DNA of 35,076 nucleotides from a virus. Its lineage: Duplodnaviria; Heunggongvirae; Uroviricota; Caudoviricetes. A program made the translations under genes and the position numbers. The notes beneath the pieces are model-generated. The model was not told where the DNA came from. It ran no database searches and saw only the letters and a program-made list of their open reading frames with translations. Where the stretch lies: IMG/VR virus record IMGVR_UViG_2606217118_000004; one strand, given 5' to 3'. Below, in pieces: positions 12,491 through 30,109 of the stretch. Within the stretch, counting starts at the first letter, position 1; the number at the start of each line of letters is the position of its first letter.

Positions 12491-12696
12491 TGCCCGCTTT
12501 ATGTAGTGGTTTTCATGCGCCTGCATGACATAAGCAAAAGCCCGCCATTCCTGGCGGGCCTCAGCTAAAACGATCCTCAAACGATCATGCGGATTCATGC
12601 GGCATAGTCATGCAGCACAATTCCTTTGCCCCACTATATCCTTTGTGGCAGAAATTGAGGAAAATGATTCATAAATACTCATATTTCGGAGGATAT

Positions 12697-13596
12697 ATGG
12701 CAGTTCTATTTTTATTTGGCGCAGGTGCGAGTTTTGGCAGCGGTCCATGTAGTCCATCCAATCCACCTCTTGGTAAAGATCTGCTTATCCGCATGCGTGA
12801 AAAAGGTGGAGTTGCTTCAACTATTGATGGCGCTCTATTGGAGAGTTTCATTGCAGATCCTGAACAAGGAATGATTAATTTTTTCAATGAACGAAATTGC
12901 GAGACAACTCACCTCCTAAAGCAGATGTGCGCCTATCTTGCACAATTTCGGGTCGAGAAAGAAAACACCTACATAAAACTGTTTAACCTATTAAAAAAAA
13001 GAAAAAACATATGTATGGCAACAACTAATTACGACCTATTAATTGAACAAGCTATATGCTCTGTTGGCTGTCTTGTTCAATATCACTCATCGAAGCGCAA
13101 TAGAAATAACATACCGGTATTAAAAATACATGGCTCAGTAAACTTCATACCAGTTGCAAATATCGTTAATATCGATTTCGAATTACCTGATTGCGAGAAC
13201 TCTGCAATATTCGATGGTCCAATTGATATTTACAACGATGAGCAAGACGTGATTGCATACTGCGAAAGTGATTCTGCCCTCTCACCCGCAGTTGCATTAT
13301 ATCATCCCAAAAAAAGCGTATTGCACTGCCCCTCATTTGTTAAGTATCAGCAGGAAGAGTTTCGTTCTGAGGTTGAACGTTCATCCAAGATATTCATTAT
13401 TGGACTTAAAATAAATCCAAATGATGAGCATATTTGGTCTGAAATTGAAAAAACTTCAGCCGACGTCTACATAGTAGACAAGGATAAAGAATCTACTATC
13501 ACCTGGGTTAATAGCTTGAGCAAAAAGAACATTTACCACATAGCTGATACTTTTGATGAATCGATTGTGAGAATTAAAAACATTCTGCAATTATAG
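12697..13596 (+). CDS. Standalone SIR2-like (ThsA-type) NADase-domain protein; candidate anti-phage cargo in the cos-A hotspot
   Basis: ORF track 12610..13596; start placed at the Met with a GGAGG RBS (MAVLFLFGAGAS...). Ordered motifs GAGAS, TTNYDLLIE, KIHGS and IFIIGLKINPNDEHI follow the SIR2_2/ThsA pattern. Visibly AT-rich; opposite strand to flanking phage genes. Confidence 0.6.
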   Translation: MAVLFLFGAGASFGSGPCSPSNPPLGKDLLIRMREKGGVASTIDGALLESFIADPEQGMINFFNERNCETTHLLKQMCAYLAQFRVEKENTYIKLFNLLKKRKNICMATTNYDLLIEQAICSVGCLVQYHSSKRNRNNIPVLKIHGSVNFIPVANIVNIDFELPDCENSAIFDGPIDIYNDEQDVIAYCESDSALSPAVALYHPKKSVLHCPSFVKYQQEEFRSEVERSSKIFIIGLKINPNDEHIWSEIEKTSADVYIVDKDKESTITWVNSLSKKNIYHIADTFDESIVRIKNILQL

Positions 13597-20353: not shown

Positions 20354-21394
20354 ATGACCATCAGAAAACAGCCGAACGGAAAATGGTTGTGTGAGTGCTA
20401 TCCCAATGGACGCAATGGTAAGCGCGTGCGTAAGCAATTTGCTACCAAAGGCGAAGCCATTGCGTTTGAAAGCTTCACAATGGAAGAAGTGAACAAAAAA
20501 CCATGGCTAGGGGAAAAGGAAGATCGGCGACATCTATCAGAATTAATTGAGCTGTGGTATTCCCTGTATGGTCAAACACTCGCAGACCCCAAGCGCCTCA
20601 TGGCGAAACTTAGAATTATCTGTAATGGTCTAGGCGATCCCATCGCCTCAGAACTGACAGCTGGTGAGTTTACGAAATACCGCGAAGCACGGTTAAAAGG
20701 TGAAGTACGAAATGAAGATGGCACGCTTATGTCGCCCGTTAAGCCCCGCACGGTAAATCTTGAACAGCGCAACCTATCATCTGTTTTTGGTACACTGAAA
20801 AAGCTGGGCCACTGGTCAGCCCCCAACCCGCTTGCTGGGCTGCCAACATTTAAAATTGCTGAGGGTGAATTGGCGTTCCTGACCCCGGAAGAAATTAAAC
20901 GTCTGCTGGATGCCTGTGCTGATTCTCAAAGCCCCAGTCTGCTGATGATTGCAAAAATATGCTTGGCCACCGGCGCACGCTGGAGCGAAGCCGAAAACTT
21001 ACAGAGTCATCAGGTATCAAAATACCGTATCACTTATACCAAGACTAAAGGAAAGAAAAACCGAACAGTGCCTATTTCAAAGGATTTATATGAAGAACTG
21101 CCTAAGAATAGGGGAAAATTATTTACACCTTGTAGGAAAGCTTTTGAACGTGCGGTTAAACGAGCTGGTATCGAGCTACCAGAAGGGCAATGCACACACG
21201 TATTACGACATACATTTGCAAGTCACTTTATGATGAATGGCGGAAACATACTGGTGCTGCGCGATATTCTGGGCCATGTCGATATAAAAATGACAATGAT
21301 TTACGCCCACTTCGCTCCCGACCATCTGGAAGATGCTGTAACCAAAAATCCTCTTGCTAACCTTGGATGGAGAAAATTAGAAAGTGCTTGTTAA
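20354..21394 (+). CDS. int: Tyrosine integrase (P2/186 type)
   Basis: 346 aa; C-terminal catalytic signature HVLRHTFAS ... LGH ... MIYAH. Confidence 0.85.
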   Translation: MTIRKQPNGKWLCECYPNGRNGKRVRKQFATKGEAIAFESFTMEEVNKKPWLGEKEDRRHLSELIELWYSLYGQTLADPKRLMAKLRIICNGLGDPIASELTAGEFTKYREARLKGEVRNEDGTLMSPVKPRTVNLEQRNLSSVFGTLKKLGHWSAPNPLAGLPTFKIAEGELAFLTPEEIKRLLDACADSQSPSLLMIAKICLATGARWSEAENLQSHQVSKYRITYTKTKGKKNRTVPISKDLYEELPKNRGKLFTPCRKAFERAVKRAGIELPEGQCTHVLRHTFASHFMMNGGNILVLRDILGHVDIKMTMIYAHFAPDHLEDAVTKNPLANLGWRKLESAC

Positions 21395-22515: not shown

Positions 22516-22560
22516 ATGTAGGAATTTCGGACGCGGGTTCAACTCCCGCCAGCTCCACCA
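22516..22560 (+). other. ssrA: 45-nt copy of the tmRNA (ssrA) 3' end ending in CCA; att core at the prophage/satellite junction
   Basis: ATGTAGGAATTTCGGACGCGGGTTCAACTCCCGCCAGCTCCACCA matches the E. coli ssrA 3' terminus as I recall it; sequence upstream of 22516 is not ssrA-like, so this is only the core fragment. Confidence 0.7.
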
Positions 22561-22744: not shown

Positions 22745-23938
22745 GTGGCAAGAACGACACGCCCCCTGACCAACACAGAGGTTCTGCGCGCTAAAGCGTT
22801 AGAAAAGGATCTAACGTTGCATGATGGCGATGGTCTTTTTCTGCTCGTTAAAACGAACGGTAAGAAGTTATGGCGTTTCCGTTATCAACGTCCAGCAACA
22901 AAGCAGCGAACAATGATGGGGCTAGGTGCCTTCCCCACCCTTTCACTTGCTGACGCCCGACGGTTAAGAGCGAATTACCTTTCCTTGTTAGCCAACGGAA
23001 TTGACCCGCAAATTCAAGCTGAAATTGCAGAGGAACAGCAGCAAATCGCACTGGACAGTATTTTTTCAACCGTCGCCGCTAACTGGTTCCAGCTTAAAAG
23101 CAAAAGCGTTACCCCTGATTACGCGAAAGACATTTGGCGTTCACTAGAAAAAGATGTATTCCCTGCCATCGGTGAGATCCCAGTTCAGCAAATCAAAGCC
23201 CGAATGCTTGTTGAAGCCCTAGAGCCTATCAAAGCACGTGGGGCGCTAGAGACGGTACGTCGTCTGGTGCAGCGTATTAATGAGATAATGATTTACGCCG
23301 TAAACACAGGTCTGATTGATGCCAATCCAGCATCAGGTATTGGGATGGCCTTTGAGAAACCTAAAAAGCAAAACATGCCTACGCTCCGGCCAGAAGAATT
23401 ACCGAAGCTGATGCGTTCTTTGATTATATCTAATCTGTCTGTTCCGACACGTTGTCTTATTGAGTGGCAACTACTGACCCTTGTACGCCCTTCTGAAGCC
23501 TCTGGTACTCGGTGGGCAGAGATCAATCTCGATGCAAAGCTCTGGACGATTCCAGCCGAACGGATGAAGGCCAAACGTGAGCACATTGTTCCTCTATCTC
23601 CTCAGGCATTAGAAATTCTGGAAGTGATGAAACCAATCAGTGCTCATCGTGAACATGTTTTTCCGAGCAGAAATGACCCTAAACTGCCAATGAATAGCCA
23701 GACTGCTAATGCAGCATTAAAACGTATTGGATATGGTGGAAAACTTGTCGCACATGGTATGCGTTCAATTGCCAGTACAGCGATGAACGAGGCAGGTTTA
23801 AATCCAGATGTGATTGAATCAGCATTGGCACATACCGATAGAAATGAAGTAAGAAAAGCATACAATCGCACCACCTATCTGCCACAGCGAATAACACTTA
23901 TGAATTGGTGGGGAGATTTTGTAAGGAACCTTAAATAA
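22745..23938 (+). CDS. int: P4/CP4-57-type tyrosine integrase
   Basis: 397 aa; located ~185 bp downstream of the ssrA 3' end, the arrangement I recall for intA of CP4-57. Confidence 0.85.
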   Translation: MARTTRPLTNTEVLRAKALEKDLTLHDGDGLFLLVKTNGKKLWRFRYQRPATKQRTMMGLGAFPTLSLADARRLRANYLSLLANGIDPQIQAEIAEEQQQIALDSIFSTVAANWFQLKSKSVTPDYAKDIWRSLEKDVFPAIGEIPVQQIKARMLVEALEPIKARGALETVRRLVQRINEIMIYAVNTGLIDANPASGIGMAFEKPKKQNMPTLRPEELPKLMRSLIISNLSVPTRCLIEWQLLTLVRPSEASGTRWAEINLDAKLWTIPAERMKAKREHIVPLSPQALEILEVMKPISAHREHVFPSRNDPKLPMNSQTANAALKRIGYGGKLVAHGMRSIASTAMNEAGLNPDVIESALAHTDRNEVRKAYNRTTYLPQRITLMNWWGDFVRNLK

Positions 23939-23986: not shown

Positions 23987-24490
23987 TTAAAGAAGTTTCA
24001 TTGTTTTCATTGTATCTTTAAAATCCTTAAATCCATCAAATAAAATGATGAAATTTGCTAGCGTCACCGATGGAGCATCAATAGTCATACTAGTACCTTT
24101 TATAAAGGTATGAGCGGCAGCATTTCTTGGGGTCTTGAGTGATGTCAAAGTGGCTTTTAATGTAAAAAGTTTTTGTTGTGTTGCTTGTTTTTCAATTTTT
24201 TCAATTGAGCTCAATCCTATAACTTGGGCTAACATTTTTTTAAAATTGTCCTCATAATGGAAATTATAATTCCGTTTTATTTCATTTTGGATTTTTTTTA
24301 TGTGTTCAGGGTTAGTTATATTTTTTTTACAAACTCCTTCAATTATGTTATCCATGGTTACCTCTATCCATCCGCACAACTCCATAAGAGCAAGCTTAGA
24401 ATAAAACAACTGTTTTTTAGGATCGGTTTCCTTAGTAAAGAGGCGATCTAACTCTTTCAATGTTTTATGAATTGTCCCCTTAACTATCAT
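23987..24490 (-). CDS. HEPN-domain protein (predicted RNase), second gene of the hotspot operon
   Basis: Track 23987..24502 begins at a TTG; the ATG at 24490 lies 4 nt after the DUF262 stop. Candidate Rx4H HEPN motif in ...TPRNAAAHTF...; AT-rich. Confidence 0.55.
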   Translation of the reverse strand: MIVKGTIHKTLKELDRLFTKETDPKKQLFYSKLALMELCGWIEVTMDNIIEGVCKKNITNPEHIKKIQNEIKRNYNFHYEDNFKKMLAQVIGLSSIEKIEKQATQQKLFTLKATLTSLKTPRNAAAHTFIKGTSMTIDAPSVTLANFIILFDGFKDFKDTMKTMKLL

Positions 24491-24494
24491 GATT

Positions 24495-25589
24495 TCACCC
24501 AAATATTCTTAGAGCGGCATCTAACCTTGCGTCAACTTTTTCCTTACTGGCTACACCACCGCTCAGAAAAGCCGTTGATAATGAATTATCTGCCCTTAAA
24601 TCATCAAAACGCTGGCTTAAACTAGCGCTAGTTTCTTGCTCTAAAAGATCAATATTTTTTGCTACACCATATAAAAGGGCTTCCATTAAAGAACTACCAA
24701 GTCTCATTGGATTGGGTTGTAATATTTTATTCCACACCAGACCTACGGTCCTCTTAAATAAATCCTCTTTTAGAGCTATATCTGACTTTCCTAAATGACG
24801 GTTTTTCTTCATATAGCCATTGAGAAATTTAGATAAAGTGCCTTTATACTTATCTTTGTTATCGTAAAATGAGAAAAATCGCAAGATAAGTTCGATATAC
24901 TTAAACCTATTCGAATTCTTGGTATTCAAGCCAGCTATTTTTTGCCACTCATCAATTTCATTCATTTCTTTGAGGGCATTATTAAACTCACCGCTAAAAA
25001 TACAATTCCTAATTTCTTGGTTATTAAGTCTTGTGCCTCCAGAATTCAACCGATGAAATATAGTAAACAAATACTCCATATGTGATAGTTTAGAATGATC
25101 ACATCTAAGCACAGTGACTGGAATTGTTAAGTTTTGCACTCTCTTATAAAAATTATTCAATTCAGTCTTTTGTTTATGAAACTCTGATACACGAACACCA
25201 GATATTTTACTATCAATATCATCGAGCTTAGACAGTTGCCAGCTTGGGTCAGATAAAAATCTGATTATTGACGTCATTCGCTGCAACCCATCAATTACCT
25301 GCCATTCCTGACTATTATAATCAAAACTAAAACACATGCTAGGAATAGGAAGCTGTTTAATTAAGGAGTCAATAAATCGTGTTTGAGCTGATGAATTCCA
25401 TACAATGTCTCTTTGAAAATCTGGTTGAATATTCAAAGTTCCTTCATTGTACATGCGAACTAAATCAGAGCAGGATCTCAACTCATTATAGGCAATCACA
25501 TCACTTGGCGGATGTTGCTCACTATCATCTTCATAATAAGATTCATCTTCTAAATTCTCAATATCTTCAAGAGTAATGTCAGCAGTCAT
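24495..25589 (-). CDS. DUF262 (ParB-like NTPase domain) protein, first gene of the hotspot operon
   Basis: Track 24495..25622; start placed at MTADITLEDIE (GGAG RBS with 5-nt spacer). DUF262 signature motifs QPDFQRDIVW, VIDGLQR and FHRLNSGG; no HNH/DUF1524-like nuclease motif seen. Confidence 0.65.
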   Translation of the reverse strand: MTADITLEDIENLEDESYYEDDSEQHPPSDVIAYNELRSCSDLVRMYNEGTLNIQPDFQRDIVWNSSAQTRFIDSLIKQLPIPSMCFSFDYNSQEWQVIDGLQRMTSIIRFLSDPSWQLSKLDDIDSKISGVRVSEFHKQKTELNNFYKRVQNLTIPVTVLRCDHSKLSHMEYLFTIFHRLNSGGTRLNNQEIRNCIFSGEFNNALKEMNEIDEWQKIAGLNTKNSNRFKYIELILRFFSFYDNKDKYKGTLSKFLNGYMKKNRHLGKSDIALKEDLFKRTVGLVWNKILQPNPMRLGSSLMEALLYGVAKNIDLLEQETSASLSQRFDDLRADNSLSTAFLSGGVASKEKVDARLDAALRIFG

Positions 25590-25906
25590 ATAATCTCCAA
25601 TATGAAATTTAAAAAAGCTCATCTATCCTTTAGATGAGCAAATAGAACTTCCTTTCATCTGCAACTCGATAATATTTAACTATCGCCTTGCAAACTCCCA
25701 CTAATTTTAGCGGCATTGTTACCCTGGTTCAATTAATTATTTCCCCCCCCATTTGCTGCACTTTCACTGAGCATCGCCCCCAACACAAAAAGCCCAAACA
25801 AAAGCGTATGAAAAAATGAGGCTTTCAAGCAAAATTATAGCTTGAGTTTGTTCATCCAAAAGCGACTTCGCATGTATTAGAAAATTCAGCATATACATTG
25901 CGCGCA

Positions 25907-28136: not shown

Positions 28137-28240
28137 TGTTCACCTCTGTTCACCTTAAGAAAAAAGATAAGTAATACAGTAAGTTAAAGGGTGAACAATC
28201 GCAGTAATGACTGTTCACCGTCTGTTCACCACTGTTCACC
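28137..28240. repeat. Cluster of six TGTTCACC octamer iterons (one inverted); candidate satellite ori
   Basis: Octamers at about 28137, 28147, 28190 (inverted), 28212, 28223 and 28233; the same octamer recurs in the crr repeats after alpha. Confidence 0.55.
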
Positions 28241-28566
28241 CGTTGATGGGCTTTTTGTGCTGTTTATTACTTTTTATTTTTATTAATTCACTGAAATAAA
28301 TAAGAAAAAACAATTTGTATTTCACTATAATTTTTTCCAGCTCCTTCCAGAGCGTTTTAAAGCTATCTGGCGCTAATGTACAAAAAATACACAGCCATTG
28401 TAAGGCTGCCGGAACAAATCCCCCCTGTTGCGTCTGCTGAAAATATTCACAAAATAAAGCGCTACCCGAAGCCGGACGGACTTATCCGGTGCTGTATGGA
28501 CATTAACGAGGTAGCCCGATGCAAGCTGTTTTTTCTTCCCCGTCTCCCGCCCCTGTGACGCCACTG

Positions 28567-28785
28567 ATGCCGCTGCCGGACATCACACAGGAGCGTTTTT
28601 TACGTCTTCCGGAAGTGATGCACCTGTGCGGCCTGTCACGCTCGACCATCTATGAACTCATCCGTAAGGGGGAATTTCCGCCGCAGGTGAGTCTTGGCGG
28701 TAAAAATGTGGCCTGGCTGCACTCTGAAGTCACTGCATGGATGGCCGGGCGCATTGCCGGACGCAAACGGGGGTACGACGCATGA
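28567..28785 (+). CDS. alpA: AlpA-family helix-turn-helix regulator (excisionase-like)
   Basis: Track 28519..28785; ...[51 protein letters not shown] is typical of AlpA-type proteins. Confidence 0.7.
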
Positions 28786-28878
28786 TGATGCCCGCTCTGC
28801 AAAAACTCCCTTTTTCTGGCTTGCCTTTTTCCGGCATTTGCGGATATAGTTTTTCCGCTGCCGCAAAATCGGCAGCCG

Positions 28879-29173
28879 GGCGTGAGAACCCGAGCAATCT
28901 AACGGCGACATATGACGCGCCATGCGTCTTTTTTTGTGTCGCAATCAACGCCACAGAGCGCCAGATTATGGTGTGGTGTGTGGTCAGTCGTGCAGATGGC
29001 ATTCCGTGCATCCTGCCCGCGTCCGCTCATTATGCCGCAGAGTCAATGGTAGCTCAGGCGGGGCAGCCTCCGGGCTGGCCGGTATCCGTTAGAGCCGGTA
29101 TTCTCACCCCCGTCTGGGCTATCGCCATCGAGCGTGAGAACTCCGGCGATAGCGTAACCTGCTATCTAACGGA
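28879..29173 (+). ncRNA. Candidate P4-type RNA immunity region: direct repeats (seqA/seqC-like) flanking a complementary segment (seqB/CI-RNA-like)
   Basis: GCGTGAGAAC...ATCTAACGG occurs at ~28879-28904 and ~29133-29173, and CCGTTAGAG...TTCTCAC at ~29086-29108 is largely complementary to them. The long ORF over this region looks spurious. Confidence 0.3.
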
Positions 29174-29183
29174 GGCTGCCATC

Positions 29184-29381
29184 ATGGCTACAACCCTTAC
29201 CCCCTCACACCCTGAATTTGTCTTTGTGTTTGCGGCTGTCCGTCGCGCAGACCGTCATCCCCGTATCTGTATGCTTCGCACCGTCGCCGGTGATGAACGC
29301 AGCGCCCGCCGTTCCCTTGTCCGTGACTATGTGCTCTCCCTTGCTGCCCGTCTGCCGGTGGTGGAGGTGTCCCGTGCGTAA
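29184..29381 (+). CDS. Small hypothetical protein of the satellite early operon (65 aa)
   Basis: ATG with a GGAGG RBS ([12 protein letters not shown]...). The ORF track extends this frame to 28737, but that upstream part has no start signal and covers the RNA-repeat region. Confidence 0.45.
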
Positions 29382-29661
29382 TAAAAAAGCCCCTCAGACC
29401 GTCTCAGCGCGTCATGACGCCCGTGAACACCTCAGCATTGAGGCTTACCATAAGCTCAACCGCGCCAGCGCCGTATCCCAGTTTGTTGGGGGTGATTTGA
29501 TTCACCGTGAACTCTCCGGCCTGCATCAGCTCTACATTCCGCATATTTTCAGCTACCTGAATGAAGATATTGATTTTGTGCTGAATGAGCTGAAAGCCAA
29601 AGGCCTGTGCCGCGATTTTCTCGCCCAGCAGAAAGACCGGGGAGACAGGACGCATGTTTGA
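29374..29661 (+). CDS. Small hypothetical early protein (~95 aa), possibly the epsilon-position gene
   Basis: GTG start with GGAGG 6 nt upstream, overlapping the previous stop; the track lists a longer version from 29218. Epsilon assignment is by position only. Confidence 0.35.
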
Positions 29662-30109
29662 TTTTCCCCAGCCCGGTGAGATTTACCGTTCTGCCGGTTT
29701 TCCCGATGTGGCCGTGGTCGGCATTCTGGAAGACGGTATTCCGTGGGAAATGCCGTACCGCTGTCCGGAAATTGTCTGGAACCCGTACCGCCGAAAATTC
29801 AGTATCCTTGTGCGTATCCTCACTGACGGGCGCACCACAGACATCCCGCTGGGGCGTTTTCTGCGGGAATTTACCTGTGACCGTCCTGACCTGTTCAGAC
29901 GCAGCCCCGTAAACCGGCATGCGGTACTGAAAGAAATGGCCGGAGACCCGGAATTACAGAAATGGCGGGAGAAATATCTGGATATTTACCCGCAGGACAC
30001 TGTTCCGGCCAGCCGGGCGGCACCGGTGGCGCGGGAATGGCGGGAAATTCCCCGCACGGAGCCTGACCCGGAAATCACCCCGGATAACAGTTACCGCAAT
30101 TATCTGTAA
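29654..30109 (+). CDS. Hypothetical early protein (151 aa)
   Basis: Overlaps the preceding ORF end by 8 nt; length matches the orf151 I recall in P4 upstream of alpha. Confidence 0.5.
   Translation: MFDFPQPGEIYRSAGFPDVAVVGILEDGIPWEMPYRCPEIVWNPYRRKFSILVRILTDGRTTDIPLGRFLREFTCDRPDLFRRSPVNRHAVLKEMAGDPELQKWREKYLDIYPQDTVPASRAAPVAREWREIPRTEPDPEITPDNSYRNYL

Follow-up and report, generated by a model that had tools for sequence, protein, structure and literature searches.

From position 22516 or so onwards, the window (the whole stretch of DNA analysed here, 35,076 nucleotides) carries the core gene set of a P4-like satellite in P4 order, namely int, psu, delta, sid, vis/alpA, eta/kil, epsilon and alpha. 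The genes sid, delta and psu lie on the minus strand of the satellite, while int, vis, a long ORF, epsilon, orf151, orf106 (DUF5375) and alpha, the latter encoding a primase homologue of 777 aa, lie on the plus strand. The region between vis and epsilon is the subject of this analysis (Table 1). The vis gene is the first gene on the late (PLL) transcript, and its stop codon TGA at 28783-28785 overlaps the first eta ATG in the string ATGA. The first gene past kil/eta that stands under control of the switch is epsilon, followed by the homologues of orf151, orf106 and the alpha primase. Compared with phage P4 (X51522, X02534, NC_001609), positions 28500-29700 are 97.6% identical over the full 1201 nt; a 100% identical stretch occurs in many complete E. 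coli chromosomes, and a relative is present in 1057 of 5426 genomes. An Rfam scan of the whole window returned exactly three matches above the gathering score, all of them on the plus strand, in this region and in P4 order. With high confidence, this part of an E. coli chromosome can be identified as the immunity control region of a P4-like satellite prophage, consisting of a PLE leader with seqA, the CI RNA and seqC. The switch is the textbook, well-studied P4 RNA immunity system and as a system already known.

The satellite adjoins a P2-like prophage near glaH, while in an otherwise identical strain it sits at ssrA. Positions 1-22515 of the window belong to that P2-like prophage and encode a terminase, a portal protein, a gpA-type replication endonuclease, a CII-like protein, a CI repressor and an integrase (20354-21394). 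The junction of the P2-like and P4-like parts lies at about 22516 and the satellite int at 22745-23938, which places a potential helper and a satellite in tandem. In strain 2009C-3133 the satellite is 99.98% identical from 22516 on and lies beside ssrA without the P2-like element, and in strain HS4 a second integrase comes after a similar P2-like prophage. Between int and psu of the satellite lies a cargo hotspot (23987-25622, minus strand) with the two-gene defence system PD-T4-2, with a component A containing a GmrSD_N/DUF262 domain (PADLOC 2.3e-162) and a HEPN protein as component B (8.6e-64). In the P2-like prophage, just past the portal gene, an ORF at 12610-13596 (plus strand) matches Pfam SIR2_2 with 23.6 bits, barely under the cut-off, and PADLOC SIR2 with 1e-5, and may be a defence gene in a P2 hotspot.

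Promoter, RNA elements and kil in the early leader

Table 1. Features of the immunity region, with window positions and the evidence for each.
Feature	Position	Strand	Evidence
vis / alpA homologue (88 aa)	28519-28785	+	Pfam Phage_AlpA 7.3e-21; corresponds to P4 ORF88
eta ORF (199 aa)	28782-29381	+	PGAP 199-aa CDS in identical genomes; frame open in relatives
PLE-type constitutive promoter (TTGCCT, 18-nt spacer, TATAGT)	28821-28850	+	promoter scan
c4-a1b1 (C4 upstream targets), RF03163	28844-28896	+	49.5 bits (gathering score 46.7)
seqA RNA (IsrK homologue)	28857-28934	+	Rfam isrK RF01394, 72 bits (gathering score 50), full-length match including terminator
CI RNA, C4-family antisense RNA, RF01695	29042-29129	+	74.5 bits (gathering score 45), E 5.8e-13, model positions 1-87 of 87
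seqC, downstream target	29134-29172	+	repeat scan, composite pattern, covariation with CI
kil ribosome-binding site (Shine-Dalgarno GGAGG 29171-75, AUG 29184)	29171-29186	+	read from sequence
kil, Icd-like cell-division inhibitor (65 aa)	29184-29381	+	NCBIfam phage_ICD_like NF033153, 1.6e-21, 76 bits (cut-off 25)
C-rich, G-poor tract (15 C and 2 G in 30 nt)	29187-29216	+	base counts
epsilon, helper derepression protein	29374-29661	+	Pfam Derepression 7.7e-51; P4 and PGAP annotation

The PLE-type promoter is the sole sigma-70-like site on the plus strand within 28200-29800, and its -10 hexamer coincides with the '-10' annotated in the P4 record X02534. From its position a transcript start at about 28857 is expected, the same nucleotide at which the Rfam isrK model starts. 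In the predicted fold, the seqA RNA forms two hairpins (28857-63/28870-76 and 28877-80/28889-92), of which the second displays target element a (GUGAGAA, 28882-88) in its loop, while target element b (UCUAACGG, 28898-28905) falls in a single-stranded linker. The RNA is ended by an intrinsic terminator, seen both in a terminator scan and in the fold, that comprises a stem at 28914-19/28923-28 and a U7 run at 28929-35. CI lies downstream of this terminator (28914-28935), so that some read-through is required, and the terminator is proposed to be leaky. In P4 terms, the homologues of IsrK and C4 in P4-like prophages are seqA and CI RNA (PMC3632133; PMC4825925).

The CI RNA between 29047 and 29124 folds with -48.1 kcal/mol (z = -4.72); no shuffled sequence folds as well, and the minimum-free-energy and centroid structures are the same. 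A closing stem of 17 bp (29047-63/29108-24) is predicted to enclose two hairpins (I, 29064-77; II, 29078-99) and an 8-nt unpaired junction, exposing the antisense element b' (CCGUUAGA, 29086-93) in the loop of hairpin II and a' (UUCUCAC, 29101-07) in the junction. Across 36 relatives 99.9% of cells in this structure are paired, with 3 compensatory pairs in the closing stem, while the invariance of hairpins I and II in the sample is partly due to the search pattern demanding them. CI shows the sequence features of the C4 family: the score, a long closing stem with two hairpins and a junction, two antisense elements, and one upstream and one downstream target on the same transcript, the downstream one overlapping the ribosome-binding site of an Icd/Kil-type gene. 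Directly after the closing stem, the string G-CCA (29124-27) resembles a tRNA end, and C29125 and C29126 are invariant in 36 sequences. The CI RNA of P4 and the C4 RNA of P1/P7 are substrates of RNase P, with recognition of the 3' end of the substrate involved (PMC5499578), and the G-CCA tail with its invariant C pair fits this reported processing. By analogy with P4, a stable CI of about 80 nt would be released, its 5' end cut by RNase P.

The downstream target seqC holds a second copy of element a (GUGAGAA, 29134-40) and of element b (UCUAACGG, 29165-72), together with a small hairpin (29148-66) and an extension, CCGGC at 29143-47, that is complementary to 29094-98 in CI. The last two G of its element b are at the same time the first two G of the kil Shine-Dalgarno sequence. 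The Kil product, which constitutes the C-terminal part (last third) of eta, is identical in sequence to that of P4, and kil is the first gene translated from PLE transcripts. Right after the kil AUG, the C-rich tract (GC skew -0.43 and -0.36 at 29170-29239) is, judged by its base composition, a candidate Rho-loading (rut) region and could form part of an immunity-specific terminator.

Matched changes at the three pairing sites

The earlier note had described two direct copies of a sequence flanking a segment complementary to them, had placed them in a satellite early leader and had read them as P4-type seqA, CI RNA and seqC elements, all of which is borne out. A repeat finder returned direct repeats at 28877-28898 and 29129-29150 (77% identical) and at 28894-28905 and 29161-29172 (92% identical), as well as inverted repeats at 29087-29112 versus 29129-29154 and at 28873-28888 versus 29101-29116. 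The composite pattern GTGAGAA-N(5-30)-TCTAACGG occurs in exactly 3 copies in the 35 kb window, at 28882-28905 and 29134-29172 on the plus strand and at 29086-29107 on the minus strand, the last being the complementary middle segment; 0 copies are expected, and 0 of 100 dinucleotide-preserving shuffles matched. The positions given here were read back from the sequence itself. The 7-nt and 8-nt matches between CI and its targets are exact at both seqA and seqC. The placement in the early leader is correct in view of the gene order, which is that of P4, and of the identity to the P4 immunity region given above; the P4-type assignment agrees with the three Rfam families, with identity and synteny to P4 and with the three-way co-variation set out below. 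The span of the earlier note, 28879-29173, runs from the first target through the end of the last target, while the functional unit is somewhat larger and reaches from the promoter to the kil start codon (approximately 28821-29186).

Between 28780 and 29400 the window is 98% identical to P4, and nearly all of the differences fall in four places. The b sites of seqA and seqC contain TCTAAC in the window versus TTCACA in P4, the CI loop contains GTTAGA versus TGTGAA, and the fourth difference concerns the loop of the small hairpin within seqC. At each of the three sites, 4 of the 8 positions of element b thereby depart from P4 (TCTAACGG/CCGTTAGA here, TTCACAGG/CCTGTGAA in P4), whereas element a and the 5-bp seqC extension are those of P4, as are the promoter, the seqA hairpins and terminator, the CI fold, the layout of seqC, the Kil product and the flanking genes. 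The matched differences at seqA, CI and seqC mean that the three pairing sites have changed together and are still complementary.

This pattern extends to relatives of the locus. A sample of leaders was assembled from 33 IMG/VR loci, 44 metagenome loci, the window, one E. coli genome and the P4 records, with a search pattern that fixed hairpin I and the loop flanks of hairpin II only; it comprises 79 usable leaders, 37 of them distinct, and 36 distinct leaders entered the covariation alignment. In these 36, the seqA:CI pairs are paired in 96.5% of cases compared to 82.9% in shuffles, and 10 of the 15 pairs have changed on both sides. The covariation score for seqA:CI is 0.450 versus 0.188 in shuffles, a value of 0.450 being reached by 0 of 500 shuffles, and registers slid against each other are at most 50% paired. 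For CI:seqC, 97.5% are paired and 10 of 20 pairs have changed on both sides.

Elements a and b are perfectly matched at all three sites in 71 of the 79 leaders, which fall into eight a/b combinations. Element a GAGAA occurs together with b TCTAACGG, the type of the window, in 17 leaders, with b TTCACAGG, the type of P4, in another 17, and with b GTTATCGG in 5; a GGAAA is combined with b TCTAACGG in 14 leaders and with b TTCACAGG in 12; a AGGAA is found with b CTCAATGG in 4 leaders; and the combinations of a TTTGCAG with b CTCAATGG and of a GTAGCAG with b CCAACAGG are represented by 1 leader each. The small sample, in which all four pairings of the two commonest a and b types are frequent, contains no fewer than 5 a types and 5 b types that match fully; the decayed CI loop of the leaders L135 and L142 represents a sixth. 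The leader with b CCAACAGG (L167, positions 43-390, from the metagenome contig RCNG010056541.1) belongs to a distant relative that has the same CI hairpins and a new a and b matched at seqA, CI and seqC; its first downstream ORF encodes a 46-aa protein unrelated to Kil/Icd.

Matching is not absolute, since mismatched sites occur in 8 of the 79 leaders. Two of these, L135 and L142, look decayed, while in the other six (L136, L165, L170, L177, L179 and L185) a seqA, CI or seqC is of another immunity type than the remaining sites. The six may be natural recombinants, defective elements or, in the case of metagenome contigs, assembly chimeras; the source of L136 is an isolate-genome UViG. In the IMG/VR genome 2529293142, two leaders (L148 and L150) are of the same immunity type, GGAAA / TTCACAGG, by which a rule that co-resident satellites must differ in immunity type is ruled out.

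Duplex energies were computed per element, as prediction for the whole-CI duplex unfolds CI and gives unrealistic energies and cofolding cannot represent loop-to-target (kissing) pairing. Calculated in this way, predicted b duplexes come out at -11 to -12 kcal/mol between cognate partners and at -1 to -7 kcal/mol between non-cognate partners. Between the window and P4 alleles, predicted b pairing falls from about -11 to about -2 kcal/mol: the cross duplexes reach -2.1 (window CI on P4 target) or -2.9 kcal/mol, versus -11.3 or -11.8 kcal/mol for the cognate ones. The co-variation is strong comparative evidence that the pairings are a selected function. Homoimmunity with P4 would take the same a and the same b, and here a is identical and b different. 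On this comparison the window allele, a common one, is probably heteroimmune to P4, given the same a element and a different b at all three sites, while the a element shared with P4, along with the seqC extension, makes some cross-immunity possible.

The likeness of seqA to IsrK of Salmonella Gifsy-1 raises another reading, in which the 28857-28934 transcript would serve mainly as a trans-acting small RNA that opens the read-through isoform for translation, and not as a passive target of CI. At 72 bits and with the terminator included, 28857-28934 fits the isrK covariance model over its full length, and the paper on IsrK describes a dual small-RNA/mRNA mode, names P4 seqA as a structural homologue of IsrK and suggests that STnc1160 may act like P4 CI (PMC4825925). 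IsrK itself is a trans-activator of translation of its own read-through isoform, with AntQ-type effects and Hfq binding, whereas the window RNA is assigned by its match to the model. Since seqA a and b co-vary with CI, which argues that CI pairing is the selected function, and since in the repeat scan the short RNA was complementary to the downstream leader through CI only, we consider an IsrK-like main role very unlikely, although the two roles can hold together. Very unlikely, too, is that the locus belongs to a decayed, cryptic prophage in which the RNA switch survives without function. Defects are frequent among P4-like elements, and a few relatives are decayed or mismatched, for example L135 and L142; in the window, however, all three sites match perfectly, promoter, terminator and CI fold are intact, as are kil, epsilon, alpha (777 aa), int, psu, delta and sid, and identical copies are found in many complete genomes.

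The long reading frame through the leader

The RNA elements are embedded in an open reading frame that passes through seqA, CI and seqC and ends with kil. Its version starting at 28737 (214 aa) is the longest-ORF rendering of the eta frame and had been set aside in the earlier note as probably not a gene, with no start signal. This judgement did not hold: the frame is that of P4 eta, it is kept open in relatives, and it likely starts with ATGATGATG at 28782, overlapping the vis stop codon, where three consecutive ATGs (28782/28785/28788) are found. Forti et al. in 1999 reportedly gave Kil as 65 aa and Eta as 197-199 aa, and this length of Eta fits the three ATGs. In P4 the constitutive promoter lies inside eta, and eta is translated from late-promoter transcripts, preventing termination (PMC10111431, summarising Forti et al. 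1999).

In nearly all relatives the frame upstream of the kil AUG is open for 345-456 nt while the other two frames are closed, and in the divergent L132 and L146 types every indel (9 nt in one, 6 + 39 nt in the other) has a length divisible by three. Among relatives the peptide in the spacer between the RNA elements varies and the frame alone is kept, which fits a role for translation as such. Over the 28737-29381 ORF, Pfam PF10554 Phage_ASH matches aa 37-161 (28845-29220) with 94.9 bits, spanning exactly the stretch that encodes the seqA, CI and seqC RNAs, whereas the NCBIfam Icd-like model matches aa 161-208 only. Because the peptide between the RNA elements varies among relatives, the Phage_ASH family signal is probably RNA conservation read in the eta frame. 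In RefSeq, records of the identical locus list a 199-aa 'Icd-like' CDS only, without an RNA gene.

Such records would agree with a region that is protein-coding only (Eta, alias 'Ash' or Icd-like), with repeats that are incidental to the coding sequence, as would the Phage_ASH and Icd-like matches and a frame of 199-214 codons that is kept open in relatives. This account is nevertheless extremely improbable in the face of three RNA covariance models above threshold, of three sites that change together with complementarity preserved and of a spacer in which the frame but not the peptide is kept, and coding and RNA functions do coexist in P4 (PMC10111431). Equally hard to credit is the idea that a satellite protein binds the three co-varying copies as DNA sites (operators or iterons): co-varying repeats in both orientations would also be expected of protein sites with changing specificity, but Kil, the candidate protein next to them to which the comparison was confined, has the same sequence in the different immunity types, the copies occupy loops and junctions in a family of structured RNAs with antisense action, and P4 genetics point to an RNA as the immunity factor (PMC4825925; PMC3632133).

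RNA immunity in P4-like satellites and related phages

Under the RNA immunity reading, the mechanism at this locus would follow P4, for which the logic of eta, kil, CI and seqA has been summarised (PMC10111431) and genetics identify the immunity factor as an RNA (PMC4825925; PMC3632133). It would build on what is observed here, that is, the promoter, seqA with its terminator, seqC at the kil ribosome-binding site, their homology to P4, the CI fold, the complementarity and the co-variation, and would take over from the P4 literature the processing of CI, early termination upon seqA and seqC pairing and the role of eta. PLE would constitutively transcribe the leader, running through seqA and its leaky terminator, CI and seqC over the kil ribosome-binding site and then into epsilon, orf151, orf106 and alpha. 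Processing of the leader would free the stable CI RNA, which would present b' in its hairpin loop and a' in its unpaired junction to nascent transcripts and pair with a and b of both seqA and seqC. On seqC, CI would mask the kil Shine-Dalgarno sequence, leaving kil untranslated and presumably the C-rich RNA at 29187-29216 bare, so that Rho might halt transcription before epsilon and alpha; Rho-dependent premature termination giving immunity is carried over from P4, and the C-rich tract is compatible with it. The prophage would thereby stay quiescent, and a superinfecting satellite of the same type would be blocked. Transcripts from the late promoter would escape because ribosomes translate eta through the leader.

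Outside the P4 group, a close parallel is the immI region of P1/P7, in which c4 acts on two targets, a1b1 and a2b2, that lie upstream of icd and ant. The Rfam families are shared (C4 RF01695, c4-a1b1 RF03163), and so is the logic of an antisense RNA cut from the leader of its own operon, with two antisense elements and a downstream target at an Icd-like ribosome-binding site (PMC8198154). The controlled genes differ, being an antirepressor in P1/P7 and the satellite replication and derepression genes in the window. Nucleotide similarity of D6 and RCS47, which we take to be P1-like phages, to the window amounts to only about 72-74% over approximately 180 nt. Citron and Schuster are said to have found in 1990 that the immunity of P1 and P7 differs through matched changes in these very elements. 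Likewise, the P4-like retronphage phiR73 was reportedly described by Sabbattini et al. in 1996 (Virology 216:389) as heteroimmune to P4, the chief difference lying in seqB, with seqA and seqC changed to match. The difference between phiR73 and P4 is hence of the same kind as that of the window allele, whereas the cargo is a retron in phiR73 and PD-T4-2 in the hotspot of the window. No phiR73 record was found among the phage matches to 28500-29700, and a search of the collected loci for retron reverse transcriptases yielded a single candidate, an RT-like ORF of L129 whose length is too great for Ec73. This locus (IMG/VR UViG 2534681663_000021) carries at about 9443 on the plus strand a long cargo ORF with the retron-type reverse-transcriptase motifs YADD and VTG, and its leader is identical to that of the window, which means that the same immunity allele travels with different cargo.

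We tentatively suggest, with a confidence somewhat short of even, that P4-like satellites carry a modular two-element RNA 'immunity barcode' that is held in register at three sites, of which the window bears a heteroimmune allele, that may diversify under satellite-satellite competition and whose new alleles may arise by copying between the repeats. Such copying, by template switching or short-patch conversion from one inverted or direct copy to another, would take the place of three independent mutations. Were this reading true, the combinatorial breadth and the generation of alleles would be its new part, while specificity by matched changes is an old idea.

The natural combinatorial a-by-b code and the gap in RNA annotation are modest additions to a known system. 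With regard to annotation, the Phage_ASH family on a stretch of RNA genes may lead to the locus being misread as protein only or, as in the earlier note, as RNA only. The survey of relatives provides a clean natural example of three-way compensatory evolution defining immunity types, and the a/b types could serve to type P4-like satellites and to predict their mutual exclusion.
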